The translations under genes were made by a program, and so were the position numbers. The notes below the pieces were generated by a model that saw only the letters and a program-made list of their open reading frames with translations, was not told the origin of the DNA and did not search any database. From positions 2,944,001 to 3,008,000 of the forward strand of contig OZ241889.1 in the NCBI GenBank assembly GCA_965203355.1: a stretch of 64,000 nucleotides of DNA, written 5' to 3'. This DNA is from Candidatus Latescibacterota bacterium (GTDB lineage: Bacteria > Latescibacterota > UBA2968 > UBA8231). This document shows positions 1-57,817 of the stretch, piece by piece; the stretch's first letter is position 1; each line of letters begins with the position of its first letter.

Positions 1-898
1 CGGCTAGGTTGCGCTGCGTTGACCACTCGACCAAGACTCGGGGATACGCTTGGCCGCGCTCGTACGCTGGGTCGTGATAACCAGGACCGGTGCGCGCCGC
101 ACTCCGCACATCCACATTGCCCAGCGCCGCTCCAAAACCATGCGTTACCTGCGCTCCCCCTACGAGGATAATGCGCCCCATGCGATGCGTATCCGGCGCT
201 TGCTTTAGGCTCTGATAGATGGTTGCCAAGGCATTGCTGGCCTCGCCGCCAAAGGCAATGACGCCAAAATCCATGCCATACCCTTGGGTAAATGCCTCGG
301 CCTGCTCGACCACGGCCTGCCCAGCCGGATCGACGACGCGCTCTATGCCCACCTGCCGGGCCAGGTCTCGACGGCGCGCAAAGTAATCGACTCCCAAGAC
401 ATGGCAGCCGCTTAGCTGAGCGAATTGGGCCGTAAACTGACCGACCAAACCCAACCCGACCACGATCCCGTTTTCCCCGTACAAAGGAGCCGTGCGGCGC
501 ACTGCGTGCAATCCAGTCGCTGCCAGATGCACAGACGCCGCCTCGGCAAAGCTAACGCCCTCGGGTATGGCCGCGCACAAGTTCTGCGGAACGCAGACCC
601 AATCGGCGTGTAGGGCGTACCCACCCCCCATGCAGGCCACGCCCTGCCCCACCTCAAATTGCTCTACACCAGCCCCGATCGCCTCAACGACGCCGGCGTT
701 GGTGTAGCCAAAAGGACGCGGGCCCCTGTCGGGTTGCGGTTTTTCTCGCATGGCCCCTACCCTCCCCAGTTCGGTTCCTGGGCTAATCAACGAGGCCTCC
801 ACCTGCACTTTTACCTCGCCAGGGCCGAGAGCAGGCATAGTTTCCTCTATACATACTCCCTGACCACGGCCATCAATAGCCGCGACTTTCCTCTGCAT
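1..898 (-). CDS. MDR-superfamily (zinc-binding alcohol dehydrogenase-like) oxidoreductase, 3' end runs off the window
   Basis: Not in the ORF track; hand translation from ATG 898 (RBS AGGAGGT at 903-909): MQRKVAAIDG...SLISPGTE...FGYTNAGVVEAIGAGV...GLGLVGQ (Rossmann GxGxxG); open to position 1. Confidence 0.85.
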   Translation of the reverse strand, partial: MQRKVAAIDGRGQGVCIEETMPALGPGEVKVQVEASLISPGTELGRVGAMREKPQPDRGPRPFGYTNAGVVEAIGAGVEQFEVGQGVACMGGGYALHADWVCVPQNLCAAIPEGVSFAEAASVHLAATGLHAVRRTAPLYGENGIVVGLGLVGQFTAQFAQLSGCHVLGVDYFARRRDLARQVGIERVVDPAGQAVVEQAEAFTQGYGMDFGVIAFGGEASNALATIYQSLKQAPDTHRMGRIILVGGAQVTHGFGAALGNVDVRSAARTGPGYHDPAYERGQAYPRVLVEWSTQRNLA

Positions 899-993
899 CA
901 GTACCTCCTGCTCGCGCTGGTTGCGCCCTCGTGGACTGCTGTATTACTTATACAACTCATGTTTAATATGTCTATTGCCCTATTCGAGGCGCT

Positions 994-1761
994 GTGAACG
1001 TCATCATTGCCGCAGTTTTAGGAGGCATCCTCTTGGTTTGGGGCGGGTTTTTGGGCCTGCTCCGCATTGCGGATCCCTTTGAGCGCAAACACGTGCTGAT
1101 CCTCGCGGCGTACACCACCCTCGTCGTCGGCTGCATTATGGGCTTGGTGCTCTTTATCAATCACGAGCAGCAAAAGCAGCACCGCTATCAGCTAGATGCG
1201 CAAATGGAGGACTTCTCCAATCGCCTCTCCGAGCTGAGCACCCGGCTCATTGGCCAGCTAGAAGAAAAAGCCAATCTGACCGCCTCTGAATTCGAGATCC
1301 GCACCCTCTTGCAAAACGAAAAGGATCACCACAAGCGCACCCGCAATCAACTAGCAACCCAAATAGATCACAACAACTCGCTGCAAAACAAAATGGAAGC
1401 CGAGCGCAAGGAGCGGCTGAGCTACCAATCCAGCATGGACCGCAAACTCGAAGAACGCTTCCGGCAGGAGGACTTGCGCTACCAAAACCTCGCCGACACC
1501 CAAAAGCGCTCCTTGGCAAATGTGCAGGCGCAGTTCGCCCCCCTCAACAACGAGTTGTCCCGTCTGCAACAACAAACCGCGACCTTGCAACGCAACCAGC
1601 AGGCGACCCTAGACAAAATAGCCGCCAGCCGCGAAACCCAAACGCTCTCAGTCCAAAAACTCGACGCGCTCGCCCGCAGCCTGAGTGCCCTGTACGACGA
1701 CTTGAACCGAACTATGGCCCAAGTTGATAGCCTATATCACAGAACATCGCCAACGCCTTAA
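994..1761 (+). CDS. Hypothetical membrane protein: two N-terminal TM helices followed by a long coiled coil
   Basis: 255 aa ORF; hydrophobic segments at about aa 1-24 and 35-56, then Q/E/L/R-rich heptad pattern. Confidence 0.8.
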   Translation: MNVIIAAVLGGILLVWGGFLGLLRIADPFERKHVLILAAYTTLVVGCIMGLVLFINHEQQKQHRYQLDAQMEDFSNRLSELSTRLIGQLEEKANLTASEFEIRTLLQNEKDHHKRTRNQLATQIDHNNSLQNKMEAERKERLSYQSSMDRKLEERFRQEDLRYQNLADTQKRSLANVQAQFAPLNNELSRLQQQTATLQRNQQATLDKIAASRETQTLSVQKLDALARSLSALYDDLNRTMAQVDSLYHRTSPTP

Positions 1762-1771
1762 GGAGCTGACA

Positions 1772-2596
1772 ATGAAACGTACCCTCATTCCTTTCATCGC
1801 CCTGTTCCTTGCTGCCTGCACCAATAAGGAGCAAGAAATGATCCTGCTCCAATTGCAAAGCGACATGGTCCGCGCCAACGCCGCCATTGACTCGCTGACC
1901 TACTCGCTCGACGACTCCAACCGCTTGCTCGACGACATGCGGGCGCAAGTAGATAGCACCCAACAGGTCAACGACAAGCTCCTCGAAAACGTGCAAAAGC
2001 TCAACAAAGAGTTGCGGCACTGGAGTAAACTGGCCACCGAATACGAGCAGAATAATGAGCGGTTAAAAATCGAAATCAATCAGTTAAGGCAGGAAAAGCA
2101 AGCGGACCGTTACACCATCTCCCAGCTGCGCACCGAGACCGATCGCCTTAACGCCGAGTTGTTGGAAACCCACAGTAGCATCCGCCGCCAGAGCGATCAC
2201 ATCCGCCGCTTAGAGCAGGACTTGGCCGAAGCCAAGACCGAACTGGTCGAGGCCAAGTCCCAAATCGCCGAGCAAAACGCAGTGTACCTCTATGCTGCCA
2301 ACGAAACCCAACTCGTAGAACAGGGCTACCTCAAAACGCACCGCCCCTTTGGCCGGGGGTTCCGCAAGCAGTACGAATTAATTAAAAATATCCGCCCCGA
2401 CAGCCCAGGGGCCCAAGTCGCGCCTATTGGCCAAACCATCGCGCTACCAAGTGAAGTCGAGGCTCTCGTCGATCGCTACGGCAGGCTCAGGAAGGGGGAT
2501 GACTACGAAATGACGCGCAGCGACGCCGGCATACAGGTCGCTTTCCTCAACGAGTTAGCCGGTGGCACGGGCGTCTTGGCGATACTCAAGGAATAG
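1772..2596 (+). CDS. Coiled-coil lipoprotein with C-terminal globular domain, possibly Cbp1-like
   Basis: RBS AAGGAG before ATG 1772; lipobox LAAC; long coiled coil; C-terminal NAVYLYAANETQLVEQGYL segment. Confidence 0.75.
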   Translation: MKRTLIPFIALFLAACTNKEQEMILLQLQSDMVRANAAIDSLTYSLDDSNRLLDDMRAQVDSTQQVNDKLLENVQKLNKELRHWSKLATEYEQNNERLKIEINQLRQEKQADRYTISQLRTETDRLNAELLETHSSIRRQSDHIRRLEQDLAEAKTELVEAKSQIAEQNAVYLYAANETQLVEQGYLKTHRPFGRGFRKQYELIKNIRPDSPGAQVAPIGQTIALPSEVEALVDRYGRLRKGDDYEMTRSDAGIQVAFLNELAGGTGVLAILKE

Positions 2597-2605
2597 CTTG
2601 GCCCC

Positions 2606-3025
2606 TCACCAAGTGTGGACATAGACCGCTGGGCGCACCTTCTCTCCGGTTTGGTCGGTCGAAAGCAGCGAGTCGGCAAACGATGCGTGTTTGGCCAACT
2701 GCTCGCGGCTGCCGCCTTTGAGAAATAAGTGCAAATTAGCCTCAGGTTCGGCGGCGAGGTCCCGCACCATGCGGCGGAAATCCCACTCGCTCAAGGGGCT
2801 GTCGATGGTGTAGCCATTGCGCGATAGCCCCAGGCCCGCGCTCGTGTAGAGCACGACCCGATCCCCAGGCTGTGGGTCGTGGCGATGCACCCGCCAAACG
2901 GGTTGCGTCGCGTTGAGAATCATAATGCCCAGGCTCAACATCAGCATCATAATGCCCAAGAAGAGTTCCTTGCTAATATCGTGCTCTTCAAACTCGGCGG
3001 CTTGGCGCTTGAGATAGCGGCTCAC
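2606..3025 (-). CDS. ExbD/TolR-like single-TM protein, atypical
   Basis: Short charged N-terminus, one TM helix (ELFLGIMMLMLSLGIMILN), small soluble domain; start overlaps the stop of the upstream MotA/ExbB-like gene. Confidence 0.55.
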   Translation of the reverse strand: MSRYLKRQAAEFEEHDISKELFLGIMMLMLSLGIMILNATQPVWRVHRHDPQPGDRVVLYTSAGLGLSRNGYTIDSPLSEWDFRRMVRDLAAEPEANLHLFLKGGSREQLAKHASFADSLLSTDQTGEKVRPAVYVHTW

Positions 3026-3831
3026 AATTTTTTATTCCTCTCTCTGACCCAAGCGTCCTCCTGCCGGGCCAGCCGCTGGACCAAGTAGTCGGCGATTTTG
3101 CGCAGCGGCAAGTAGGCCAAGAGACCGACGAGCGTGGTCTTAAAAGCCAAAACCAAACCCTCGGCCATGGCGCTGAGTGCCTTAAAGGTCTGCGTGGCTT
3201 CGTCAATCTGACTCAATTCCTGCGCGGTCAGCAGGATACCGCAGACCGTGCCCAAGTAACCGTATAGGGGAATCCGCGCCAGATCCCGGCGCACATGCGT
3301 CAAAGGGTCGCCGAGAAAACCAACCAACTCATCTACTAACTCCTCGTCTCTGCTCTTGAGCTCGCTGTAGTCGGCTGCTTGGCCTTCCAATTCCGCTAGT
3401 TTTTCCATTCTCTTGCGGCCCAAGGTGTTAGCATCGAGCTCTCTTCCGCTCTCCCAAGTCTCCCAAGCCCGTCCCTCGCGCCGAAGGTGCAAATTAATGT
3501 AGGCCAAGCTCAACAGATGGCCACCAGCCGCCCAAGCGATCAGCACGTATGAGAAGCGGCCAATCCACGCAAAGGCACTGTCTAGCTGCGGATTGGTAAA
3601 GAGGTAATAAGCCGCCAGTCCCCCGACGATTGCCCCAGTCAGCAAGCCTATAAAGCTGGCTAGGTACTGTAGGCGGGGTAACTTCAGAGCGTGCGATTCG
3701 TCCTGTCGGCGCATACGTCGGGCTCGGCGCAGGTGCAAATAGCTAACGCTAACGCCGCAGGCCAGCACCAACAGGATGCGGCTGACGAAAACTAATTCGT
3801 CGTTCAAGAGATCTTGAAGAGTTTCCACCAC
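3022..3831 (-). CDS. MotA/TolQ/ExbB proton-channel family protein with extra N-terminal TM helices
   Basis: Family signature PLYGYLGTVCGI...GLVLAFKTTLVGL; start uncertain (GTG 3831/3828, ORF open to 3891). Confidence 0.8.
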   Translation of the reverse strand: MVETLQDLLNDELVFVSRILLVLACGVSVSYLHLRRARRMRRQDESHALKLPRLQYLASFIGLLTGAIVGGLAAYYLFTNPQLDSAFAWIGRFSYVLIAWAAGGHLLSLAYINLHLRREGRAWETWESGRELDANTLGRKRMEKLAELEGQAADYSELKSRDEELVDELVGFLGDPLTHVRRDLARIPLYGYLGTVCGILLTAQELSQIDEATQTFKALSAMAEGLVLAFKTTLVGLLAYLPLRKIADYLVQRLARQEDAWVRERNKKL

Positions 3832-5000
3832 TGCCAACTTATCACCCCCAGATAGAACAGCAGGCCCGTTGCAATTCCCCACAGCGCCCACGGCGTGCTG
3901 CGGATACTGTAGATGCCCTGAGCCGACGATTGCTGTCCACCCATTCCCGCTTCCCTAGCCCGTCCATCCCCTTTGGTTGAACCACGGGCAGCCGGGGGTT
4001 TATAATCTCGGCGACGATCTGCTTCCCCACGCGCTGTGCCGACCATGGTACGCTGCGACGCGACATGGCTCGTACCTTTAAGCGTTTGTTTTGGTGGTAA
4101 GATCAAGGCGCGTTCCTCGGCGGGCAGGGCCTCGGCCCAAGCGAGCAATTTTTTTGCCGCACCTATGCTTTCGACTTCGGCCAATTTGCTCGCTTTCCCG
4201 AGGGAAAAAGCCAGCCGCCCGCGGACAAATCCCTCGTAGAGCACGTCCTGGGTGGGGCGGCGGCGCACGCGGAGTTTTTGCGCCAATTCATCGCGTTGCT
4301 TTTGCAGATGCACCAGACGGCTGACGACCCTATGAGTCTCCATGGGCTGGTGCGACACATTGCTGACCACACCTCCGAGCGGCCGACGACGGGCCGCGCG
4401 GGCTAATTGTGCGGCGTCGAACTGGGTCTCTAATTCGACCTCGCCAAACAGTGCCGTCCCCCAGATGACTTCGGCTCCGGGAATGTCGGGTAAGCTGTGG
4501 TTGTAAAAACGCGGCTCGGCCCGCTGGCCAGCGACCCACCACTGGCCAGTGCCGGTAGCCAGCACCTGGCGCAAGCGGCCGCGGCCATCTTGCAAATACA
4601 AACCAGCCATAAAGCCGCTTTCGACTCGGTCTGTGTCCCAGCAATGGGCGCGCAAGACATTGGACTCGCGCAGGTACACGACGGGAATTTCGACTCGGAT
4701 CGGAGTCAAACGCGTCTCCCCGATCCGCTGTCCATTGAGGAACAGCTCGGCTTCGTCGTCGGCCCAAAATATTAGTACCAGTCTGGAATTGGCTGGCAAT
4801 AGCCGACTGCCTTCCTTTCGCTTTGCCAGCTCGCGCAGATGGTCCCCGCCATAGAGACGGACCAAGGTGTCGATGCTGGCGGACACTTGGTTGTATTGTT
4901 GTCTCAGTGCCACCACATCGTCAGCCATAGCCGTAGCAGGCCAGCCGACTCCGTATGCCGCCCAAGCCAACCCACACATCCATTGCCCATAGCCGTTCAT
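3804..5000 (-). CDS. Exported, C-terminally membrane-anchored protein with a jelly-roll/galactose-binding-like domain
   Basis: ATG 5000 overlaps the SDR stop (ATGA); signal peptide ending AMA|DD; WADDEAELFLNG...NVLRAHCWD...GFMAGL resembles sugar-binding accessory domains of glycosidases; C-terminal TM (WALWGIATGLLFYLGVISW) followed by basic residues. Confidence 0.65.
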   Translation of the reverse strand: MNGYGQWMCGLAWAAYGVGWPATAMADDVVALRQQYNQVSASIDTLVRLYGGDHLRELAKRKEGSRLLPANSRLVLIFWADDEAELFLNGQRIGETRLTPIRVEIPVVYLRESNVLRAHCWDTDRVESGFMAGLYLQDGRGRLRQVLATGTGQWWVAGQRAEPRFYNHSLPDIPGAEVIWGTALFGEVELETQFDAAQLARAARRRPLGGVVSNVSHQPMETHRVVSRLVHLQKQRDELAQKLRVRRRPTQDVLYEGFVRGRLAFSLGKASKLAEVESIGAAKKLLAWAEALPAEERALILPPKQTLKGTSHVASQRTMVGTARGEADRRRDYKPPAARGSTKGDGRAREAGMGGQQSSAQGIYSIRSTPWALWGIATGLLFYLGVISWQWWKLFKIS

Positions 5001-5767
5001 ATATTGGACTTGGATTGCCCCCCATCGACATTGATGCAGGCACCGGTCACCCATTTCGCCCGGTCGGATGCCAAAAAGGCCACTACATCGGCCACTTCCT
5101 CCGGGGTGCCAAAGCGACCAAAAGGTATATTGGCGTCGATAAAGGCCTGGATTTGAGCTGGATTTTCCTTCATCCGCCGCTCCCAACTTCCCCCAGGAAA
5201 GAGAATGGAGCCTGGAGCCACAGTATTGACGCGGATGTTCTTTTTTGCCGCTTCAATCGCCAAGTTGGCCCCTAGGCTAATAAGCGCTGCTTTGGCGGCG
5301 TTATAGGAGATAGGCCCGCCGGTTTCGCGGCCAAAAATCGAAGAAATGTGGACGATGCTGCCGCCCCCACGTGCTGCCATTAAGGGAATCGCCGCCCGGC
5401 TCACCCGCACGGCGGAAAGAAAGCTCAAATTGATGATGTCGTTCCACTCGGCATCGTCGATCTCGACAAAGGGGGTCCACTTAGAGCCACCGACATTATT
5501 TACGAGAATGTCTAGCCCGCCAAAGCGACCTCTCGCCGCCTCCACCACAGTGATCGCGCCTTCCGGCGTCGTCATATCTTGCGCGGTCGCCTCTACCTCT
5601 GCGCCTGCATTTGCTAAGTCAGCCGCCGCGTCCGCCAGCGCGTCCGCATCGCGCGCGCAGATGCAAAGCCGGGCACCTTCGGCGGCCAAGGCGGCGGCGA
5701 TGCGCTTGCCAATGCCGCGGCTAGCCCCGGTCACCAAGGCGACTTTGTCTTTGAGTCCTAGATCCAA
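4997..5767 (-). CDS. Short-chain dehydrogenase/reductase (SDR)
   Basis: TGASRGIG, VNNVG, YNAAK, C-terminal VDGG; TTG start at 5767 after AAGGAG. Confidence 0.93.
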   Translation of the reverse strand: MDLGLKDKVALVTGASRGIGKRIAAALAAEGARLCICARDADALADAAADLANAGAEVEATAQDMTTPEGAITVVEAARGRFGGLDILVNNVGGSKWTPFVEIDDAEWNDIINLSFLSAVRVSRAAIPLMAARGGGSIVHISSIFGRETGGPISYNAAKAALISLGANLAIEAAKKNIRVNTVAPGSILFPGGSWERRMKENPAQIQAFIDANIPFGRFGTPEEVADVVAFLASDRAKWVTGACINVDGGQSKSNI

Positions 5768-5768
5768 G

Positions 5769-6755
5769 CTACACTCCTTTTTCAATGCCCGGGGCCAATG
5801 CACCGGGGTTGGTTGCAAAAAGCGCGATCAAATAAGCAATGCACAACACCAACAACACCAAACCCTTCCAGCGGTTTAACGAGTAGCCGAGGCGCATCAA
5901 CCCGAGCATCGTCAGCACGATCGCCAGCATCCACGGGAACATGAAATTGACCACGCTGGCTGGGACCACCAGTGGATTGACCAAAGCCGAAGCACCGGCG
6001 ATCCAGCAGATGTTGAGGATGTCCGCTCCGAGAATGTTGCCCACCGCCAAAGCCCCTTGGCCCTTGCGGGCGGCGACAATGCAGGTGGCGATTTCGGGTA
6101 TCGAAGTGCCCAAGGCCACGACCACCAAGCCGATGACGACATCCGGCAGCCCCAAGGCCCTCGCCACGACCGGCGTGGCTTCGACGATAAAATGGCTACT
6201 GACGACCACGCCAGCTAAGCCACAGGCGAATAGCAACACTACCTTCGAGAGGCTGCGCAGCGGAGCATCCGCCTCCTCGATCTCAGCGCGAGGTCGCCGC
6301 TTCTGTTCCCAGAACGAGTATATTAGGTATAGGACAAAAAGCCCCACCAAGGTACCGCCTTCCACCCGAGCCAGCGTCCCGTCGGAGGCCATGTACCAAG
6401 CCACTAGATCTACGGTAATGAGAAAGACCGCGGCCGAGCGCAGCACAATGCGGTCGATGGCAATGGCCGCAGGAGCAAAAAATGCGGCCATGGGCAGAGC
6501 CACGCCATCGTCGTAAATGACCGACCCTACGGCATTGCCCAGTGCCACTTCGGGTGAGTCCTTGAGGGCGGCGGTCACGGAAACGGCCAATTCGGGCGAG
6601 GTCGTGCCAATGCCGACGATGACGATGCCGATCAATATCGGCGGGGCGTGGAGATAACGCGCAATATCAATGGCTCCCTCGACCAGATAGTCGGCGCATT
6701 TGGCCAACAGCGCGAAGGACAGGACCATCAGGCCCGCAGCTTCCCATACCCCCAT
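5769..6755 (-). CDS. Calcium/sodium antiporter (CaCA, YrbG-like)
   Basis: Two alpha repeats GTTSPE...GNAVGS and GTSIPE...GNILG; about 10 TM helices. Confidence 0.92.
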   Translation of the reverse strand: MGVWEAAGLMVLSFALLAKCADYLVEGAIDIARYLHAPPILIGIVIVGIGTTSPELAVSVTAALKDSPEVALGNAVGSVIYDDGVALPMAAFFAPAAIAIDRIVLRSAAVFLITVDLVAWYMASDGTLARVEGGTLVGLFVLYLIYSFWEQKRRPRAEIEEADAPLRSLSKVVLLFACGLAGVVVSSHFIVEATPVVARALGLPDVVIGLVVVALGTSIPEIATCIVAARKGQGALAVGNILGADILNICWIAGASALVNPLVVPASVVNFMFPWMLAIVLTMLGLMRLGYSLNRWKGLVLLVLCIAYLIALFATNPGALAPGIEKGV

Positions 6756-6757
6756 GA

Positions 6758-7633
6758 TTAGCCCGGCGCGTCTAAGTAGGAAGACAAGAGGCGCTCGGCG
6801 TTTTGGTAGGCGATCTTGTCAAAGGCTTCCGCAGGTAGCTCGAGGGTGCGCAGAAAATCCATTAGCCGAGTGTCAAAATAGTCCCGACCAAAGAGCAATT
6901 TGTCCTGAAATTCGAGGAGAAAATCGCGCCCGAAGTCCTGGTCCCTTTGCAGCGCACGCAAACCCGACCCGGCCGACAGATCGGCATAGAGGTTGCGGTA
7001 CTGGCGCATCATCGGAGCCAAGTGCCCATTGGGCAACACCGGCCCGCACGGATAGCTCTCCTTGGCGTAGCGATCGTCCCCGGAAATATGGGCCCAAAAC
7101 CCAGGGGCATGACCGATAAAGACCGTCTGCGGGCAAGCTACAATCGCCCGTTCAAGTGCGTCAAGGCTGCCGCCGTACCACCAGTTGGGGCGCGGATAAT
7201 CGCCGCGGCCGTGGTCAATTGGATAGTCGAGATGGATCGTAATGGGCAAGCGCATGGCACCGCAAGCCTCGTACAGGCGCAGCGCGTCTGGATCGTCAAA
7301 CGGCAGGCGCACCTTCAGCTCGGAGGCGACTTGCACGCCATGGATCTCGACTGCGGCCCGGAGCCGATCTATCGCGTCGGGCCGCTTGGGATGCGGCATA
7401 TAGCCGAGGACAAAGCGCTCGGGTGCTTCCCGGCCAACGGCCAGCACATCTTCGAAGGGAATCCCCCAGCCCGTAGGAGGCAACACCGAGTGATACGAAG
7501 GCGAGTATTCATCTGCCGGGACTTCCCACGAGAAAAGCCACATCTGGTCAATGCCTTGCTCGTCCATGTTCCGCAGGATTTTGGCCGCGTTAAACCCGTG
7601 CCAATTGGGGTGATTATGTGCGTCAATAAGCAT
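6758..7633 (-). CDS. Amidohydrolase family 2 protein
   Basis: N-terminal IDAHNH, IGHAPG, DLSAGSG, LLFGRD. Confidence 0.88.
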   Translation of the reverse strand: MLIDAHNHPNWHGFNAAKILRNMDEQGIDQMWLFSWEVPADEYSPSYHSVLPPTGWGIPFEDVLAVGREAPERFVLGYMPHPKRPDAIDRLRAAVEIHGVQVASELKVRLPFDDPDALRLYEACGAMRLPITIHLDYPIDHGRGDYPRPNWWYGGSLDALERAIVACPQTVFIGHAPGFWAHISGDDRYAKESYPCGPVLPNGHLAPMMRQYRNLYADLSAGSGLRALQRDQDFGRDFLLEFQDKLLFGRDYFDTRLMDFLRTLELPAEAFDKIAYQNAERLLSSYLDAPG

Positions 7634-13916: not shown

Positions 13917-14756
13917 ATGCACAATCTGCACGACGAAGAAAACACCCTGAGACTCTATTTCGACGATATTGCTGAGTCCACGCCCCTTTCGAGAGAACGC
14001 GAAGTAGAACTGGCCGACCGCATCAAAAATGGCGATATGAACGCTCGTGAAGAAATGATTAGTGCCAATTTGCGGTTTGTCGTCGATGTCGCCAAGAAGT
14101 ACCAAAACCGCGGATTGTCTCTATCCGACCTGATTAGTGCCGGCAATCTCGGCCTCATCACGGCGGCTGACCGCTTCGATGGCACCAAGGGCTACAAATT
14201 CATTTCATACGCGGTTTGGTGGATCCGTCAGTCCATTCTCCAAACTCTCGCCGAACACGTGCGCACCGTGCGTCTCCCACTCAACAAGGTCAGTTTGCTC
14301 AAGGATATTTCCAAAGCCTCGCGCAAATTGGGGCAGCATCGCGCCAGTGAGCCTGGCATAGAGGAAATCGCCGCGGAACTCGAAGTCCCAGCCGAAGAGG
14401 TTCTAGAGACCATCCTCAGCGCCCGCTCCGTGTGTTCGCTCGACGAATCCTTCACCGACGATGACGAGCGCAGCCTACTCAACACCTTGGCCGACAATAC
14501 GGCTGCAGCCCCAGATGCCGACATCCTGAGCGAATCGGCCCGGGAACAGCTCGAGACAGCTTTGGAAACCCTTGAGGAGCGCGAATTGCGCATTATCAGG
14601 CTCTATTTTGGCCTCGACGGCAATGAAGCCCTGACGCTTGAGGAGATCGGCGACATGATGAATCTCACGCGCGAGCGCATCCGCCAGCTCAAAGAGCGGG
14701 CACTCAGCAAACTGCGCCATCCTTCGCGGCATCAGGTGCTTAAAACGCTAGCTTAG
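13917..14756 (+). CDS. RNA polymerase sigma-70 factor, RpoD/RpoS family, lacking region 1.1
   Basis: ANLRFVVDVAKKY, DLISAGNLGL, KFISYAVWWIRQ, TLEEIG...TRERIRQL; 279 aa. Confidence 0.95.
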   Translation: MHNLHDEENTLRLYFDDIAESTPLSREREVELADRIKNGDMNAREEMISANLRFVVDVAKKYQNRGLSLSDLISAGNLGLITAADRFDGTKGYKFISYAVWWIRQSILQTLAEHVRTVRLPLNKVSLLKDISKASRKLGQHRASEPGIEEIAAELEVPAEEVLETILSARSVCSLDESFTDDDERSLLNTLADNTAAAPDADILSESAREQLETALETLEERELRIIRLYFGLDGNEALTLEEIGDMMNLTRERIRQLKERALSKLRHPSRHQVLKTLA

Positions 14757-18653: not shown

Positions 18654-21600
18654 TTAAAAGACCAAGCGTCCACGCAACAGGACGCCGTGTTCAGCGGCAC
18701 TGGCCATGCGTTGCCAGCGTGTGCTCTCAAGGCTCACAGACATCGACGAGTCCACCTCAAAGCGCGTACCTAAGCGCAACTGCATTCGCTTTGGCGCTTG
18801 AGTCATTCCGCTGTACACAGTGTACACTCCCCGCCCACCGGGCGCGGCTAAACCGTAACCGACCTCTGCTTTGAGTTGACCTTGCGCGTTCATAGCACCC
18901 CGGTCCGCTATCTCGGCTACGCTGCGCTCCCACAGCGTCAGGCTGTTCGTATGCGTACCGTAGGTCGGCATCACCCGCAACGACAACCCGCGCCCACCGG
19001 TGCCAGCCGAGCGCTGGAGCAAGAGATGTGCACCCCATTCTTGGTGCTCAACCTCGTCGTCGCCGTCACTGACCAGACTCCGCGCCATAGCTTCCAGCGT
19101 GAAACCACCGCCTTCATAGCGCAAGCCACCGCCAATTTCTACACCGGCCCCGGTCTGTCCGTCGCCACCATCTTGGCGCAGAGCAACCTCTAGCTGGGGT
19201 GTCATCTGCCCATCCATGCCCACATCGTAAGCATAGGAGCCTTTGAGTGCCAACCTCAAGCGGTTAGCACTCACGGTTTGCTCGGCAATCCGGTTTCCTT
19301 TTCCATCCTCGACTTCTCCACCCTCGATTTCGACCTGTGCAACAGTAGCAGCAGCCTTGATCCGTAGCTGAGTCGGCCCGCTGGAGAGTAAGTCACCGCT
19401 AGCCCCTACACTTGCAGTCCGCAGCGATGTATCGCTCGACTGCTGGCCTACGGTTCCCTGTTCGTCGTCAATCTCGATGTCGCCGCGCCCTAAGCCCGCC
19501 GTCAACCATACTCCAAGCCGCCCTGGCGAGAACCCGACGTAAGGATGCAGGCTCAACATGCGGGGCGTATAAGTACCGTCAACTCGCTCTTCGCCGAGCA
19601 ACGGGGCGGAATAATCGAACGATCCTTGGGCCCACGATAGAGCTAACCCGGTTAGCACTTCGGCACCTGGCCTGGCATCCAAACCAATCTGAGCACGGGT
19701 TAGGTTGCCCTCCCAATCAAGTGAACCGTCGTCGCTAGACATTTGGCCGTAGTCTCCCCGGCCCCAAAATGTGGGACTACCGGGACAAAGAATGCATCCT
19801 CTACCAAAACCAAACGGCGTTGCAAAAGACGAGCCATTCATAACCTGTGCTAGATTAACCGGACGATTCTCGAATATCCGGCCAGACTGAATCATGTTGT
19901 AAAGAGTGGACTCAGCAGCGAAGCGAAAAGACCTATTCTTATCGCCAACTCTGTCCATCTGCTCAAGGCGATCTTCGATGGCGCGATTCGTTCCATCGGC
20001 AATAGCCAATGCGTACTTGGACAAGATCTGTTCATTGAGTTCCGCAAAACGATCCGTAGCCGATTCTTCCACCCGGACCTCAAAGCTAAGAATAGCGGCG
20101 TCCTCAGCAGTCATATTGGCGTCGGTATCGTGGGCCGTATATGTCAACGTATACGTTCCAACCTCTGTCGGTGCCCCCGAAAGCATCGGCGACATGGGGT
20201 TGGGGTCAAAGGTCAGACCCGGAGGCACGTTATCTAGAGTATAAGTCAACTCGCCGAACACAGCCTCGCCGTCTGGATTTAGCGAGAGCAAATTGCCGCC
20301 CGAAGCCAGAGGCAACACCAAGTCTTCAATCGCCTCACCTTCTATGTACGTCTGGTTGGCCACGTCCCCGCTAAAGCTGGGCGCACCATCTACCGTTATG
20401 TGAAAGGTTAACTCAGCCGAATCGCCATCGATATCCTCCACCTGATAGATCAAGCGATATACCCCAGTGTCCGTCGGCGTACCCGAAAGCGTCCGAGATG
20501 CAGCGTCGAAATTCAGACCCGGCACATTCATATCTAAACTATATGCCAACTCACCGTTGCCGCCCGCCGCCACTGGTAATTCCCACGGATTCATCGCCTC
20601 ATTCTGACGCAAAATTCGATCCTCAATGGTCGCGTCAAAAAAGGTAGGTGTACCGTCGACTGTTAGAAAGAAGCTCAACTCAGCCGAGTCGCCATCTTCA
20701 TCTTCTACCCGATACGTCAATTCATATCCCTCGGCAGGATGTGACACATTAAGCTCTGGCGTACCCGAAAGCGTCCGAGACGTGGGATCGAACGCCAGAC
20801 CCGGAGGCAAGTTCTCCTCATTCAAACTATACGTCAATTCGCCGTTGCCGCCCAAAGCCGCAGGTAACTCCAACGGAGCCATCTCCTCCCCTTCAGGAAT
20901 CCACTGATTCGTAACGGATCCTTCAAAGAAGGGCATACCATTCACCGAGATCGTGAAGCTCAACTCAGCCGAATCACCATCTTCATCCGCCACCCGATAC
21001 GTCAACGCATATGCCTCGGGAGAATATGACACATTAGGCGACAACTCACCCGAAATCGTCTGGGACGTGGCATCAAATGCCAGACCCGGAGGCAACTCAC
21101 CGTCCAAGGTATAGGTCAACACCACATTCCCACCTACCGCCGTCGGCAGAGATAAGCTCACCTCATCGCCTGCGGTGTACATCTGGTCTTCCACGACCTG
21201 ATCGCCGAAGCTAGGCATACCATTCACCACAATCGTGAAGGTCAATTCCGCCGAATCGCCATCCTCATCCACGCCCCGATACGTCAACACACATCCCTCG
21301 AAGTACAACACATCCGTCGGCAGCGTACCCGAAATCGTCTGGGACGTGGGATCAAACGTCAACCCCGGATGCAACTCACCGTCCAAGGTATAGGTCAATG
21401 CCACATTCCCGCCTACCGCCGTCGGCAGAGATAAACTCACCTCATCGCCTGCGGTGTACATCTGGTCTTCCACGACCTGATCGCCAAAGCTGGGCATGCC
21501 ATTCACCACAATCGTGAAGGTCAACTCTGCCGAATCGCCATCCACATCTGCCACCTGATAAGTCAGCGGATAGCCCGCAGCATACAACATATCAGCCGCC

Positions 21601-23561
21601 AGATCCCCCGAAAGCGTCCGAGACGCGGCATCAAATGTCAGACCCGACGGCAAATCGCCATCTAGGCTATATGTCAACGCCTCATTACCACCCGAAGCCG
21701 AGGGCAATTCCCAGCTCTCTATCGACGTCCCCGCGGAAAAAGTAATTTCATTCGCCACGGTTCCATCGAAGCTGGGCATACCATTCACCGAGATACTGAA
21801 GCTCAGTTCCACAGCATCGCCATCCACGTCCGCCACCCGATACGTCAACGGATAGCCCGCGGCAGCATATAGTACATCAGTCGACAGATGACCCGCTATC
21901 GTCTGAGACGCGGGATCAAACGTCAGACCCAGAGGCAAATCGCCATCCAAACTATACGTCAATGCCACATTCCCACCTGCCGCCATCGGCAGACCTAAGA
22001 TCACCTCATCGCCTGCGGTGTACATTTGGTCTTCCACGACCTGATCGCCAAAACTCGGCATAGCAGCTATCACAATCGCGTAGCTCAACGTCGCATCATC
22101 GCCATCCACATCCGCCACCCGATACGTGAACGCATATGACTCGTCGTACAGTACATCCGCAGGCGGCACACCCGCTATCGTCCGAGCATCGGCATCAAAC
22201 GTCAGACCCAGAGGCAAATCGCCGTCCAAACTATACGTCAATGCCACATTCCCACCTGCCGCCATCGGCAGACCTAAGATCACCTCATCGCCCGCTGCGT
22301 ACATTTGGTCTTCCACGACCTGATCGCCAAAACTCGGCATAGCAGCTATCACAATCGCGAAGGTCAACTCTGCCGAATCGCCATCGGAATCCACCGCCCG
22401 ATACGTGAACGCATATGACTCGTCGTACAGCACATCCGCAGGCGGCACACCCGCTATCGTCCGAGCATCGGCATCAAACGTCAGACCCAGAGGCAAATCG
22501 CCGTCCAAACTATACGTCAATGCGTCGGTGGACCGACCTACTGGCAACTCCCAAGGCTGTTTTATCTCTTCGCCTGCAGTAAAGGTCGTTTGACCCGCAG
22601 CGACCGCTGCAAAGGTAAGTTCCACTGAGATCGTAAAGGCCAATTCCTCCCCGTCGCTCTCCTCCATATTGGTATCGGAATCTTCTACCCGATAGGTCAT
22701 TCCATACGTCCCAGCTACAGTCGGCGTACCCGAAAGCGTCCGAGACGCAGCATCAAACGTTAGACCTGGCACCTCCGGCGACAAGCTATATCTCGGCGGT
22801 GCCTCATATTCTCCCACCGAAGCCATAGGCAGTTCCAGCGTTCCTATATCCTCGCCTGTCTGGTATGACTGATCGGCAACCATCGCCCCCTCAAAGCTCG
22901 GCCTTGTATCGACTTCTACCTCAAATTTCAACGTGGCCGTATCGCCGTCGGCATCCATTACTTCGTAAGTCATCAAGAAAATAGCCACTTCCGAAGGCGT
23001 ACCCGAAAGCGTCCGAGACGCAGCATCAAATTCCAAACCCGGTGGCAAGGGACTTAGAGCATATTTCAACTCGCCGTTACCACCCGAAGCCACAGGCAAC
23101 TCTAAAGCCTCTATCGCCAACCCGGCCGAGAACATCTGATTGGCAACCGTAGCACCGCCAAAGCTCGGAGCTACATCCTCTTCATTTACTAAAATATTGA
23201 ATTTCAACGTGGCTGTAGCACCGTCGGCATCCATTACTTCGTAAGTCATTAAGAAAATAGCCACTTCCGAAGGCGTACCCGAAAGCGTCCGAGACGCAGC
23301 ATCAAATTCCAAACCCGGTGGCAAGGGACTTAGAGCATATTTCAACTCGCCGTTACCACCCGAAGCCACAGGCAACTCTAAAGCCTCTATCGCCAACCCG
23401 GCCGAGAACATCTGATTGGCAACCGCCGCATCGCCAAAGCTCGGCACATCCTGGGCTTCAGCCGCCGGAGCCGACATCAAAGTGGTCGCCAGAAAGAACA
23501 TACTCAGGCAGGACAGCAATCTATTCCGAACAAGTTTGTTACTAACTACACAACCGCTCAT
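18654..23561 (-). CDS. Autotransporter adhesin with about 12 putative Ig (cadherin-like) domains and C-terminal beta-barrel
   Basis: Signal peptide; repeats PSF...LP.A.GGN..L.Y.L...LP.GL.FD...T.SG...TY...D.DGD; helical linker; amphipathic beta strands ending in terminal Phe; RBS GGAGG. Confidence 0.9.
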   Translation of the reverse strand: MSGCVVSNKLVRNRLLSCLSMFFLATTLMSAPAAEAQDVPSFGDAAVANQMFSAGLAIEALELPVASGGNGELKYALSPLPPGLEFDAASRTLSGTPSEVAIFLMTYEVMDADGATATLKFNILVNEEDVAPSFGGATVANQMFSAGLAIEALELPVASGGNGELKYALSPLPPGLEFDAASRTLSGTPSEVAIFLMTYEVMDADGDTATLKFEVEVDTRPSFEGAMVADQSYQTGEDIGTLELPMASVGEYEAPPRYSLSPEVPGLTFDAASRTLSGTPTVAGTYGMTYRVEDSDTNMEESDGEELAFTISVELTFAAVAAGQTTFTAGEEIKQPWELPVGRSTDALTYSLDGDLPLGLTFDADARTIAGVPPADVLYDESYAFTYRAVDSDGDSAELTFAIVIAAMPSFGDQVVEDQMYAAGDEVILGLPMAAGGNVALTYSLDGDLPLGLTFDADARTIAGVPPADVLYDESYAFTYRVADVDGDDATLSYAIVIAAMPSFGDQVVEDQMYTAGDEVILGLPMAAGGNVALTYSLDGDLPLGLTFDPASQTIAGHLSTDVLYAAAGYPLTYRVADVDGDAVELSFSISVNGMPSFDGTVANEITFSAGTSIESWELPSASGGNEALTYSLDGDLPSGLTFDAASRTLSGDLAADMLYAAGYPLTYQVADVDGDSAELTFTIVVNGMPSFGDQVVEDQMYTAGDEVSLSLPTAVGGNVALTYTLDGELHPGLTFDPTSQTISGTLPTDVLYFEGCVLTYRGVDEDGDSAELTFTIVVNGMPSFGDQVVEDQMYTAGDEVSLSLPTAVGGNVVLTYTLDGELPPGLAFDATSQTISGELSPNVSYSPEAYALTYRVADEDGDSAELSFTISVNGMPFFEGSVTNQWIPEGEEMAPLELPAALGGNGELTYSLNEENLPPGLAFDPTSRTLSGTPELNVSHPAEGYELTYRVEDEDGDSAELSFFLTVDGTPTFFDATIEDRILRQNEAMNPWELPVAAGGNGELAYSLDMNVPGLNFDAASRTLSGTPTDTGVYRLIYQVEDIDGDSAELTFHITVDGAPSFSGDVANQTYIEGEAIEDLVLPLASGGNLLSLNPDGEAVFGELTYTLDNVPPGLTFDPNPMSPMLSGAPTEVGTYTLTYTAHDTDANMTAEDAAILSFEVRVEESATDRFAELNEQILSKYALAIADGTNRAIEDRLEQMDRVGDKNRSFRFAAESTLYNMIQSGRIFENRPVNLAQVMNGSSFATPFGFGRGCILCPGSPTFWGRGDYGQMSSDDGSLDWEGNLTRAQIGLDARPGAEVLTGLALSWAQGSFDYSAPLLGEERVDGTYTPRMLSLHPYVGFSPGRLGVWLTAGLGRGDIEIDDEQGTVGQQSSDTSLRTASVGASGDLLSSGPTQLRIKAAATVAQVEIEGGEVEDGKGNRIAEQTVSANRLRLALKGSYAYDVGMDGQMTPQLEVALRQDGGDGQTGAGVEIGGGLRYEGGGFTLEAMARSLVSDGDDEVEHQEWGAHLLLQRSAGTGGRGLSLRVMPTYGTHTNSLTLWERSVAEIADRGAMNAQGQLKAEVGYGLAAPGGRGVYTVYSGMTQAPKRMQLRLGTRFEVDSSMSVSLESTRWQRMASAAEHGVLLRGRLVF
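21050..21545. repeat. Intragenic tandem repeat, period 279 bp (Ig domains 8/9)
   Basis: GCAACTCACCGTCCAAGGTATAGG at 21092 and 21371 with near-identical flanks; boundaries approximate. Confidence 0.85.
21916..22523. repeat. Intragenic tandem repeat, period 279 bp (Ig domains 4/5/6)
   Basis: TCAAACGTCAGACCCAGAGGCAAATCGCC at 21916, 22195 and 22474. Confidence 0.9.
22925..23444. repeat. Intragenic tandem repeat, period 276 bp (Ig domains 1/2)
   Basis: 22925-23168 nearly identical to 23201-23444. Confidence 0.92.
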
Positions 23562-35933: not shown

Positions 35934-36260
35934 ATGCCTATCTATAACAAGGTTCCGGCCAATCCCACCACTGCTCCGGCCGAGCGCATCCGCCTCGACG
36001 AGCGCTTCGTATCCTTGCTCGTCGCCGAAGACGCCCAAGATCGCCTCGAAGCCCAAGAGTTGCGCCAGCTCGTCCACCGGGCCCTCCAAGCCCTCTCCGA
36101 CGACGAAATGCGCGTTGTTCAACTTCGCTATCAGTACAAGAAATCGCCCGGCCAAGTCGCAACGCGCCTAGGCATTTCCCGCGACGCGATGGCTGCGCTT
36201 GAGCAGAGCGGGTTAGCAAAATTGCGTCAAGGGCTTGAGGATTGGCACCGAGGCGTCTGA
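35934..36260 (+). CDS. Stand-alone sigma-70 region-4-like HTH protein
   Basis: ALQALSDDEMRVVQLRY...QVATRLGISR...GLAKLR; no region 2. Confidence 0.75.
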   Translation: MPIYNKVPANPTTAPAERIRLDERFVSLLVAEDAQDRLEAQELRQLVHRALQALSDDEMRVVQLRYQYKKSPGQVATRLGISRDAMAALEQSGLAKLRQGLEDWHRGV

Positions 36261-37776
36261 ATTGCAGCAGTGGTTCTTTCCCCTGCTCGCCCCAGCCTTA
36301 CTCTCGGGCCTGCTCTTCGTAGTTAGCATTCCCAAATTCGATCAGTATTACCTCGCTTGGATTTGCCTGCTGCCGCTTTTTGCGGCTCGGCAGTGGCTGC
36401 CAAGCCAAAGCCATTTCGCCCTCGGGCTGATCACGGGCGTCGTCTGGGCTATCGGGCGCACGTACTGGATTACCGAGACCTTGCAATTGTACGGTGCGCT
36501 GGCCTGGGCAACCGCTGCGGCGACGAATGCGCTACTCATCTTATACCTGGCCTTGTATCTGGCCTGTTTTGTCGCCGTGTGCCGCCGCATAAACTTTTCT
36601 TCCCCCCTCTTTGCTTGGTCGGCGGCTAGCGTCTGGATCCTTTTGGAATGGGCGCAAAACTGGATGTTGAGCGGCTTTCCTTGGCAGCTACTAGGCTATT
36701 CGCAGTACCTCAATCTCCCCTTTCTACAATGGGCGGGCATAACTGGCGTTTACGGCCTGAGTTTCCTCATCGTCCTATTCAACGCCGCGTTGGCCCAAGC
36801 CCTCTCGCACCGCACCTTCATCCCCTATCTGAGCCTGCCCCTTTTCCTGCTAGTCGCCGTTCATCTATGGGGGTTCTACCGGCTGCACGACGCGCCCGAT
36901 CCGCCACCTGCGACCCTAAAGGTCGGCGTCGTTCAAGGCAATATCCCCCAAGACCGCAAGTGGGCGGAGAATCGGCTAGCCTGGACGGCTCGGCACTACG
37001 CTGCACTCACTCGGGATTTGGCAGCCGCGGAAAAACCTGCCCTGATCATCTACCCCGAGACAGCCCTGCCGCTCTATTTTAGCGACCCTTTGTACGCGCC
37101 CTATGTTGATTCAATAACAGCCCTAGCGCCCGAACTAGATACGCCCATGCTGGTGGGCAGCCTCAAGGGGGATTCGCAAAACCGCACGGCTCCGGTCTAT
37201 AACCGAGCTTTCCTGCTCAACGCTCAAGGGGATGTCGTGGATTACGCCGACAAGGTTCACTTGGTGCCGTTTGGCGAGTTCCTGCCTTTCCCATCTATCT
37301 TTCAGTATTTGGGAGGACTTACCGCAGAAAGCGGCATCTTCACCCCTGGGGAAAGGCACAAAGTACTGCGGCTTCCGCGCAGCGGCACCTCATTCGGGGT
37401 CTTTATTTGCTACGAGTCCATCTTTCCGGAAATCACCCGCGCACTGATGGCCCAAGATCCAGACTTTCTGGTCAATACCACCAACGACGCTTGGTTTGGC
37501 ACCACTGCGGCCCCGCATCAGCACTTGGCGCAGGCTGTCCTGCGGGCCGTAGAAAGCGGGCGGGCCGTAGTCCGCGCCGCCAATACCGGCATTTCCGGCT
37601 TAATCGAACCGAGCGGACGCATTGCCTATCGCACACCGCTTTTCACGACCGTGGGCTTTGCCATAGACGTGCCCCTACACCAGGGACAGACGCTCTACAC
37701 GCGTTGGGGGGACTGGCCGCTCCTGCTCTGTGCCCTCGCACTAACGCTAGCCGCGATCCGCAAAAATTGGAATTAG
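36235..37776 (+). CDS. lnt: Apolipoprotein N-acyltransferase
   Basis: GFPW, VQGNI, YPETA, KVHLVPFGE, ICYE, TNDAWFG, RAANTGIS. Confidence 0.96.
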   Translation: MRIGTEASELQQWFFPLLAPALLSGLLFVVSIPKFDQYYLAWICLLPLFAARQWLPSQSHFALGLITGVVWAIGRTYWITETLQLYGALAWATAAATNALLILYLALYLACFVAVCRRINFSSPLFAWSAASVWILLEWAQNWMLSGFPWQLLGYSQYLNLPFLQWAGITGVYGLSFLIVLFNAALAQALSHRTFIPYLSLPLFLLVAVHLWGFYRLHDAPDPPPATLKVGVVQGNIPQDRKWAENRLAWTARHYAALTRDLAAAEKPALIIYPETALPLYFSDPLYAPYVDSITALAPELDTPMLVGSLKGDSQNRTAPVYNRAFLLNAQGDVVDYADKVHLVPFGEFLPFPSIFQYLGGLTAESGIFTPGERHKVLRLPRSGTSFGVFICYESIFPEITRALMAQDPDFLVNTTNDAWFGTTAAPHQHLAQAVLRAVESGRAVVRAANTGISGLIEPSGRIAYRTPLFTTVGFAIDVPLHQGQTLYTRWGDWPLLLCALALTLAAIRKNWN

Positions 37777-57378: not shown

Positions 57379-57817
57379 GGTCCAATACAGCGAAATTGAC
57401 CTCGATGTCGATGCCGGAGACAACCTCCCCGGGGCCGACTTCCACCGGCGAAGGGCGGTCGGCTTCGGGCAGGTAATAGCAGCCCAAAAGCGAGGTAAGA
57501 TCCCAGAACTGATCCTCGCGGCGCCAAGCCACGACAATCCACTGATATACGCCTTCTCCATCTAAGGGGACGAAATAGTCGTACGACTCGACCCGGAGCG
57601 CGACCTCGGTATCCCAGCCGTTGATTCGCAAAAAATCGGCCAGCGAAGCAGGGGGCGCGCGATAGACGGCCACGGCCACCTGCCCCACGTTGGCAGGCCA
57701 CTCGCCGACAAAGCGCAGCTGGCCAGCGATGCCAGCCTGCCCAGTGGCCTCGGCGTCGAGCCCGCGGTCGCAGCCCCAGCACAAGGCCAAGGCCGCGACC
57801 CAACGCCAAAACGGCAC
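57305..57817 (-). CDS. Lipoprotein associated with the TonB-dependent receptor
   Basis: Lipobox-like CWGC followed by DRGL; beta-sandwich-like body; overlaps the receptor start by 74 bp. Confidence 0.75.
   Translation of the reverse strand: MPFWRWVAALALCWGCDRGLDAEATGQAGIAGQLRFVGEWPANVGQVAVAVYRAPPASLADFLRINGWDTEVALRVESYDYFVPLDGEGVYQWIVVAWRREDQFWDLTSLLGCYYLPEADRPSPVEVGPGEVVSGIDIEVNFAVLDHETDRSTALCERALPAELLAELGR

Follow-up and report, generated by a model that had tools for sequence, protein, structure and literature searches.

Introduction

Ion-driven motors of the 5:2 type supply the power for flagella, for the import of nutrients, for division of the envelope, for gliding and for defence against phages. 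Their channel subunits have three helices in ExbB and TolQ and four in MotA, and the class also includes the non-canonical members ZorA-ZorB, GldL-GldM and PorL-PorM, which have unusual output domains. Here we describe a locus at positions 994–5000 of a 64,000-nt window (the whole stretch of DNA that was analysed) from a Candidatus Latescibacterota bacterium. It comprises five genes, denoted A and B on the plus strand and C, D and E on the minus strand. On balance, we lean towards the view that the E-D-C operon encodes a highly divergent ion motor of the MotA/ExbB/TolQ class, and that A and B are its probable envelope-spanning partners.

Several described systems bear on this locus. The essential aspartate of the class is given as Asp25 in ExbD, Asp23 in TolR and Asp33 in MotB, with PomB also listed (10.1101/641415), and pore-helix threonines are described as ringing this residue (PMC12204202). 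The MotAB-like pair SiiA-SiiB is a proton-conducting accessory of the SPI4-encoded type 1 secretion system (T1SS) of Salmonella (10.1101/641415). Williams-Jones et al. (2025, PMC12204202) describe vWA “force transducers” beside tolQR-like motors, with an N-terminal helix of the SHLS/His type or an Asp-bearing pore helix. The name “Latescibacter” is absent from the main text of that paper and of the paper on MotAB diversity (PMC12505986), and we found no description of an E-D-C module in the literature on Latescibacterota or on the motor families (supplements not covered).

Channel subunit D

With 37.4 bits, D clears the 22.9-bit cut-off of the Pfam MotA_ExbB model (PF01618; E = 2.5e-9; residues 207–281 of the 289-aa open reading frame, ORF), which bears out the original prediction, made from the DNA letters, of a MotA/TolQ/ExbB protein. 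The match is limited to the last two of five hydrophobic helices. Four of these are clear in the hydropathy profile, and the fifth, which is more polar, lies at about residues 208–228, under the Pfam match. Ahead of the match are three further helices, corresponding to the extra N-terminal transmembrane segments that had been predicted, together with a cytoplasmic stretch of about 70 aa; 26 aa follow the last helix. D therefore departs from the three- or four-helix topology of ExbB, TolQ and MotA, and its five hydrophobic segments make it a topological variant of the family. Since the NCBIfam equivalog models for ExbB and TolQ scored far below their cut-offs (23.8 vs. 135), D is not an orthologue of either protein.

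A profile of D, searched against the PDB, found TolQ (8odt, E = 0.031) over the same two last helices, and hhalign aligned D to a profile of seven canonical ExbB proteins from the same phylum with a probability of 63.5% (E = 6.8e-5). In a collection of 5.8 billion proteins, D has 233 homologues. Taking one genome per species, 96 D loci were found, and the best 80 were used for all locus counts given here. The motif YGY[LM]GT[VI]xGI is present in all 80 loci and LAFxTTL in 79 of them; their GT..G and TT elements align with TolQ PYIGLFGTVWGI and with the ExbB profile of the phylum. By analogy with the family, D would be the channel (“wheel”) subunit, presumably a pentamer.

Related genomes for whole-genome comparisons were reached through the loci. 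In three of them, canonical ExbB genes (about 81–113 bits for PF01618), each followed by one or two ExbD genes, lie away from E-D-C, and a TonB_C gene completes at least one such ExbB-ExbD cluster per genome. D scores 28–38 bits in the same search. E-D-C is thus an additional motor beside the canonical ExbB-ExbD-TonB, and D-C is not an ordinary ExbBD or TolQR pair.

Partner C

C was predicted to be a single-transmembrane partner of D, and its hydropathy indeed shows one hydrophobic helix, followed by a periplasmic domain. No match to C was found in Pfam, NCBIfam, PADLOC or PDB sequence searches, including Pfam PF02472 (ExbD/TolR), and when C was compared by hhalign with eleven ExbD proteins from its own phylum, the probability was only 0.07%. 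Among 1.84 billion representative proteins, the C profile had 12 matches, of which ten were members of the C family or fragments and two were marginal (E = 1.7e-4 and 3e-4). Of the profile searches by which the original prediction could be checked, PF01618 was positive for D, ExbD was negative for C, and ZorA gave weak matches only.

The likeness to ExbD and TolR appears at the level of the fold. The AlphaFold2 (AF2) model of C, with a predicted local distance difference test (pLDDT) score of 78.8, consists of one long helix followed by a beta-beta-alpha-beta-alpha-beta domain. When the model was compared with 48,161 chains, the top match was E. coli TolR (Z = 6.9; root-mean-square deviation, rmsd, 4.6; 94 residues aligned), and two of the three chains that reached Z ≥ 5 were TolR. 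Among the best 996 chains from Foldseek, only six reached Z ≥ 5, all of them TolR or ExbD periplasmic domains (TolR 5by4, 6.9; ExbD 8p9r and 8vgc, 6.5; 8pek, 6.3; TolR 2jwk, 5.2), and the next match had a Z of 4.4. Foldseek's own search of the PDB with the C model returned nothing at E ≤ 0.001. C is thus predicted to have the TolR/ExbD fold despite the absence of sequence likeness, with Z scores that are modest.

At the cytoplasmic end of its helix, C carries the motif HD[VI]SKE[LI]FLG in all 79 orthologues. Glu20 of this motif is directly N-terminal of a 17-residue hydrophobic core, and the invariant Asp16 is placed one turn earlier. Glu20 appears to occupy the position of the essential Asp of ExbD, TolR and MotB, and the two may be structurally equivalent.

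Of the five proteins, C evolves most slowly. Its orthologues in three tiers of relatives had median identities of 92.8, 64.1 and 61.6% to the protein of the window, compared to 80.8, 50.1 and 40.1% for D. Argininosuccinate synthase (ArgG) had median identities of 92.8 and 70.2% in the first two tiers, so that the conservation of C equals that of ArgG in the first tier and is somewhat lower in the second. If the analogy with the family holds, C would be the “axle” subunit, probably as a dimer.

Exported protein E

The E protein consists of a signal-like N-terminus, a long helix, a beta-sandwich (about residues 65–223), a second helix, a juxtamembrane motif, a linker and a C-terminal helix. The AF2 model has an overall pLDDT of 72.9, while the sandwich (about 73–220) was modelled with confidence (pLDDT about 90). 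The signal-like hydrophobic start is poorly conserved and forms part of the N-terminal helix in the model. The disordered stretches hold a conserved helix with W288 and an R329...Y333.PP motif, followed by a Gly/charged linker. The membrane helix comprises residues 371–397, and a hydrophobic C-terminal stretch is present in all 77 orthologues, many of which have K/R-bearing tails beyond it. This pattern implies that the N-terminus lies outside and the C-terminus inside, the reverse of TonB, TolA and ExbD.

E had been described as an exported jelly-roll protein with a C-terminal transmembrane anchor, and both parts of that description stand, the jelly-roll at the level of fold. The 12 best matches to the sandwich among 997 chains were all carbohydrate-binding sandwiches (Z = 8.4–6.2). 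The matches to the sandwich include the Pleurotus ostreatus lectin (Z = 8.0–8.5; 6kbj 8.5, 6kbq 8.4), the CBM67 of a Streptomyces rhamnosidase (3w5n, 8.2), GH78 rhamnosidase (7.0–7.4) and CBM60 (6.2–6.7). A Foldseek search of the PDB with the E model gave nothing at E ≤ 0.001, and a profile search of the PDB gave a weak match to a GH2 sugar-binding domain (E = 0.071). The protein atlas, which uses a language model, placed E weakly (0.78) near Bac_rhamnosid_N clusters. The invariant acidic motifs WADDEA and WDTD are suggestive of sugar or calcium binding. At the fold level, residues 65–223 thus resemble a carbohydrate-binding beta-sandwich, and E may bind sugar.

No family in Pfam or NCBIfam matched E, including TonB_C and TolA, and the N-terminal helix with an SHLS motif or His that accompanies TonB_C or TolA_C in TonB/TolA transducers was not found in E either. 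E may work like a transducer, without being a member of the TonB or TolA family. A profile search with E yielded 349 proteins; those listed (120) seem to belong to a single family, and the few automatic names among them do not hold.

Coiled-coil proteins A and B

A and B were correctly recognised as a coiled-coil protein with two transmembrane segments and a coiled-coil lipoprotein, respectively, as seen from hydropathy, coiled-coil-type matches and the lipobox. A has two N-terminal hydrophobic helices (residues 1–27 and 32–57), followed by about 190 aa of helical or coiled-coil sequence. The loop between the helices is short and K/R-rich and has a near-invariant His33, which suggests that the coiled coil is periplasmic and that the hairpin could dock on a partner. 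The alignment of A further shows an invariant block, E91-K92...T96-S98-E99...H113. No Pfam family scored above its cut-off with A, and only weak coiled-coil-type matches were seen.

B has a lipoprotein signal (F-L-A-A-C), a coiled coil of about 150 aa and, at its C-terminus, a globular domain of about 100 aa. A lipobox-like Cys is present in 45 of 71 orthologues. Another 21, all from the deep clade, have a hydrophobic anchor without the Cys, and the remaining 5 are unclear. The profile search with B found 222 homologues; those listed (120) seem to form a single family, and none has a functional name that holds. In the protein atlas, B was weakly similar (0.88) to Bacteroidota clusters. Stand-alone paralogues of B also exist, as in genomes G001, G045 and G104 (loci L088–L090), where a second, weaker B-like lipoprotein gene (profile E about 1e-50) has no conserved neighbours.

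Comparison with described motors

With TolQ-TolR(-TolA), the E-D-C module shares a channel subunit that aligns over the two pore-lining helices with their GT..G and TT motifs, a partner whose best structural match is TolR, and a third membrane-anchored periplasmic protein, here E, encoded in the same operon. It differs from the Tol system in that D has five helices rather than three, C lacks sequence likeness to TolR or ExbD and appears to have Glu, with an Asp one turn earlier, where TolR has Asp23, and E is C-terminally anchored and lectin-like, with neither the TolA fold nor the SHLS/His motif. The likeness to ExbB-ExbD-TonB consists of the channel class and of the superposition of the C model on ExbD periplasmic domains, including 8p9r and 8vgc (rmsd 2.9, 71–72 residues aligned), which, judging by their entry titles, we take to have been solved with a TonB D-box peptide. 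Close to the membrane helix of E, a disordered stretch also contains a short conserved motif that might act in the manner of a D-box. Unlike TonB, E has no TonB_C domain and its anchor topology is reversed, and the canonical clusters are found elsewhere in the related genomes.

E resembles the vWA transducers in concept, these being periplasmic proteins other than TonB or TolA that are encoded beside a TolQ/TolR-like motor and proposed to receive its force (PMC12204202). E has a beta-sandwich and a C-terminal helix, however, rather than a vWA domain and an N-terminal helix (PMC12204202). SiiA-SiiB is a divergent MotAB/ExbBD-like proton channel outside the flagellar, Ton and Tol systems, with only weak helix similarity to them, and is comparable to D-C in this respect (10.1101/641415). 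SiiA, however, has a MotB-like peptidoglycan-binding domain and Asp13 and belongs to a T1SS operon (10.1101/641415); E-D-C is not surrounded by an operon of this kind. The module is also unlike Zorya, GldLM and PorLM: D has no ZorA tail, and the five proteins gave no ZorC, ZorD, GldL or GldM match, while D still scores with PF01618.

Gene order and conservation

The coordinates of the five genes are given in Table 1. The three minus-strand genes were predicted to overlap and to converge, 9 bp apart, on the plus-strand pair; this is what the ORFs and their junctions show, and all checkable details of the description hold for the five ORFs. The stop of D and the start of C share overlapping codons (GTGA), E ends within or next to the start region of D, and the first codon of E overlaps (ATGA) the last codon of the SDR gene upstream. 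A and B are spaced by 10 nt on the same strand, and 9 nt separate the convergent stops of B and C. A promoter and terminator scan of positions 700–5400 was no better than shuffled sequences (1 vs. 1.9 expected and 7 vs. 6.0 expected, respectively).

Table 1. Coordinates of the five genes in the window and of the genes inserted between B and C in one related genome.
Feature	Positions	Strand	Details
A	994-1761	+	255 aa; ORF, hydropathy
B	1772-2596	+	ORF 1724-2596, likely ATG 1772, 274 aa; lipobox L-A-A-C
C	2606-3025	-	139 aa; one hydrophobic helix
D	3022-3831	-	ORF 3022-3891; start GTG 3831 (269 aa, database gene call) or TTG 3807 (261 aa)
E	3804-5000	-	ORF 3804-5186, start ATG 5000, 398 aa; identical to database protein
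Genes inserted between B and C	L084:9659-19330 (genome G001)		2,466-aa fn3/He_PIG/dockerin gene and 749-aa WD40 gene

Contigs from RNA libraries of two studies, one marine and one of a sponge, are 90–95% alike to the window and cover positions 900–3320 (A, B, C and the start of D). They are uninformative on strand, ends and level, and DNA carry-over is possible, so they serve as a hint only; no such contig at this likeness covers 3438–4847, and this gap cannot be interpreted. Positions 900–5100 are present whole in three sequencing runs of one study, and sponge-metagenome runs share about half of the sampled words of the same stretch. Sequences of some relatives also turn up in sponge and marine sequencing runs.

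E-D-C was complete and in the same order in 77 of the 80 loci by profile census, and the other three were cut by contig ends. In all searches, E-D-C occurs only in records that are mostly titled Latescibacterota. By title, 54 of the 80 loci are from Latescibacterota or Latescibacteria, 17 are of Gemmatimonadota type, one is from Planctomycetota and 8 are from a “bacterium”. A-B converges on C in 70 loci and B alone was found at a contig end in one more, while 8 loci had neither A nor B within 7.5 kb, giving 79 informative loci. The gap between B and C was 10–274 bp in 69 of these loci and 3,024 bp in one. The gene arrangement is thus far beyond chance, and the five genes co-occur, which was one of the checks that had been proposed for the original prediction.

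A tree of C, D and E together, computed with FastTree from 77 loci and midpoint-rooted, places the eight loci without A-B in one clade of seven and one singleton, so that the A-B adjacency was lost twice. In the singleton (L054, genome G001), a 2,466-aa gene with fn3, He_PIG and dockerin domains and a 749-aa WD40 gene are inserted between B and C, which lie 11 kb apart. In the clade of seven, three genomes were checked, and the A-like, B-like and E-D-C units were found hundreds of kilobases from each other. The B-like gene in this dispersed clade is directly behind a gene for a TolC-like OEP lipoprotein (L081:9100-10527, L082:9288-10841 and L083:8844-10292), and the A-like gene is between a sigma-70 gene and an HlyD_3 plus ACR_tran (AcrB-type) pair (L085:6090-12481). 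One lineage has an AAA_21/AAA_15 ATPase gene and a small gene of no family on the 3' side of C (L058:9194-11021); the pair looks defence-like and seems to replace A-B.

A and B are only about 30% identical across the divergence spanned by the loci in which they are adjacent to C. The outer flanks differ between clades. The window clade has genes for SDR, Na/Ca exchanger, amidohydrolase and argG at one end and an ADH-like gene at the other, whereas the deep clade has an enolase-family gene with an epimerase, and a sigma-70 gene. The core of five genes has thus persisted while the genes around it changed. In a census of 167 species genomes of the phylum, C was found in 106 and B in 116. All 106 genomes with C also had B; ten had B only, and 51 had neither. 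C gave a single match per genome in 105 of the 106, the match in G074 being in two pieces.

Neighbouring genes

Pfam searches of 20 chosen ORFs between 1 and about 27.4 kb of the window did not find TonB, TolA, OmpA, flagellar or Zorya families, in agreement with the original prediction, which had noted the lack of such genes nearby (ZorC, ZorD and ZorE included; PADLOC was run on the five proteins only). Nor were tolB, pal or cpoB found among the neighbouring ORFs scanned with Pfam.

The gene upstream of E varies by clade and is always of a sugar-acid type. In the window it is the SDR gene (4997–5818, minus strand), followed by Amidohydro_2 (6758–7633, minus strand), while in the deep clade it is an NAD-epimerase with an enolase-family (MR_MLE) gene (L054:4161-6442). 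Together with the rhamnosidase/CBM67-like sandwich of E, these neighbours may hint at a deoxy-sugar link, or the association may be coincidence. A sigma-70 gene of 279 aa (regions 1.2, 2, 3 and 4) is found at 13917–14753 on the plus strand, about 9 kb from E; in deep-clade loci, a sigma-70 gene of similar size is directly upstream of A. Elsewhere in the window, a 1,635-aa protein (18654–23561, minus strand) has He_PIG and Ig-like repeats and an autotransporter beta-domain, and a TonB-dependent receptor with CarboxypepD_reg (55126–57561, minus strand) adjoins a GHMP/galactokinase-like gene (53433–55139, minus strand). The Lnt apolipoprotein N-acyltransferase at 36235–37776 fits a diderm with triacylated lipoproteins.

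Proposed mechanism and alternatives

In the arrangement that we favour, D and C would form a proton- or sodium-driven motor of the 5:2 type, the stoichiometry being taken from the family, and ions passing through D/C would power a cycle of conformational change or rotation. E would be translated from a shared transcript, kept next to the motor by its C-terminal helix, and would receive the work, serving either as the output of the motor or as its anchor. The juxtamembrane motif of E might bind the ExbD-like domain of C, as the D-box of TonB binds ExbD, and the lectin- or CBM-like sandwich of E, carried by a helical stalk, would meet a glycan of the wall, the periplasm or the outer membrane. 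A and B, as membrane-anchored periplasmic coiled coils that have accompanied the motor from the base of the clade onwards, may provide the link across the periplasm. The genes, their domains, the folds of the models and the conservation are observed, whereas stoichiometry, ion conduction, contact between E and the motor, glycan binding and the role of A-B in this scheme are inferred.

Several points weigh against this interpretation. D resembles the family over only about 75 residues, and its hhalign probability to ExbB is no higher than the value given above. C shows no sequence similarity to ExbD, its fold Z scores of 6–7 are modest, and it appears to have Glu in place of the canonical Asp, and the ion site may be Glu20, Asp16 or neither. 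The C-terminal helix of E has no conserved His or SHLS-like motif. The AF2 models of E and C were built from shallow alignments of 30 sequences from one family each, and the Foldseek searches with both models were blank at E ≤ 0.001. Finally, the co-occurrence of the genes is confined to one phylum, and shared descent may explain much of it. A-B may also serve something other than the motor, since the pair is on the opposite strand and is dispersed near RND and TolC genes in one clade.

An alternative view is that only E-D-C is a functional unit and that A-B is an independent pair, perhaps accessory to a TolC-dependent RND exporter, with the two kept as neighbours by inherited gene order. We consider this somewhat unlikely. 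It would account for the separate start region of A-B on the opposite strand, for the three genomes in which an A-like gene is beside sigma-70, HlyD_3 and ACR_tran genes and a B-like gene behind an OEP gene, and for the ten of 167 genomes that have B without C and the stand-alone paralogues of B. The adjacency was nevertheless kept in 70 of the 79 informative loci (plus the one with B at a contig edge) and lost only twice, despite the low identity of A and B and the changed flanks. The RND context could equally have arisen by insertion of an operon for a membrane fusion protein, RND pump and outer membrane factor (MFP-RND-OMF) between A and B, the locus being split later, and the ten B-only genomes are possibly incomplete. 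The opposite extreme, in which all five genes encode one trans-envelope machine with a Glu axle that would pull on, or be gated by, a reverse-topology lectin-like transducer, and with an A-B heteromeric coiled coil (A as inner-membrane hairpin protein, B as lipoprotein) reaching to the outer membrane, is plausible as a unit, and in this full form we regard it as unlikely. The undescribed five-gene envelope machine of the original prediction is thus supported in part, for the divergent D/C motor with E; A-B plausibly belong to it, and their coiled coils may span the periplasm or E may sense glycans.

The remaining alternatives concern what the motor drives. D/C could be a spare Ton or Tol motor that uses a TonB or TolA encoded elsewhere, with E an unrelated periplasmic protein that is merely co-transcribed; TonB_C genes are indeed numerous in the relatives (2, 11 and 12 matches in three genomes), and the nearest solved relative of D is TolQ. 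We find this highly unlikely, as the same genomes have complete canonical clusters with far higher PF01618 scores, the sequence of C is not that of an ExbD, two additional helices are present in D, and E, whose end overlaps the start of D, occurs in all 77 uncut loci. No better a candidate is a motor, SiiAB-like or GldLM/PorLM-like, for driving an exporter across the envelope or a machine at the surface, with A-B as the link to an outer-membrane channel; we hold it very improbable. Latescibacterota belong to the FCB group, in which GldLM/PorLM motors occur, SiiAB provides a precedent for such an accessory motor, and A-like and B-like genes are beside RND, MFP and OEP genes in one clade. Against it, there was no exporter gene near the five genes among the Pfam-scanned ORFs of the window, an OEP query matched only L081–L083 and none of the other 70 loci looked at, and an NCBIfam scan of the five proteins showed no similarity to GldL or GldM. 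A Zorya-like anti-phage system is hardly credible. PADLOC did give weak ZorA matches to D (E = 0.008–0.016) and to the coiled coils of A and B (E = 2e-4 to 0.5), but these stem from the MotA domain common to both and from the composition of coiled coils. The long tail of ZorA is missing from D, PADLOC gave no ZorC or ZorD match for any of the five proteins, and Pfam found no such family among the neighbours. The single match per genome, vertical inheritance and fixed locus are also unlike a defence island, and membership in Zorya was rejected.

Significance

Each new output found for 5:2 motors has added to what is understood of the conversion of proton flow into mechanical work. E-D-C keeps the pore helices of the class and differs in its putative Glu axle, which has no recognisable sequence family, in the two helices added to the channel subunit and in its partner of inverted topology with a sugar-binding-like domain. 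It may be read as a divergent variant of the 5:2 ion-motor type. The presence of C as a single-copy gene in about two thirds of the species genomes, with conservation at a housekeeping level, suggests a core envelope function in Latescibacterota. If the five-gene machine is true, it would add a third way of transducing force to those of TonB and TolA. E-D-C itself offers a concrete, expressible three-protein target for asking how far the 5:2 design can diverge.

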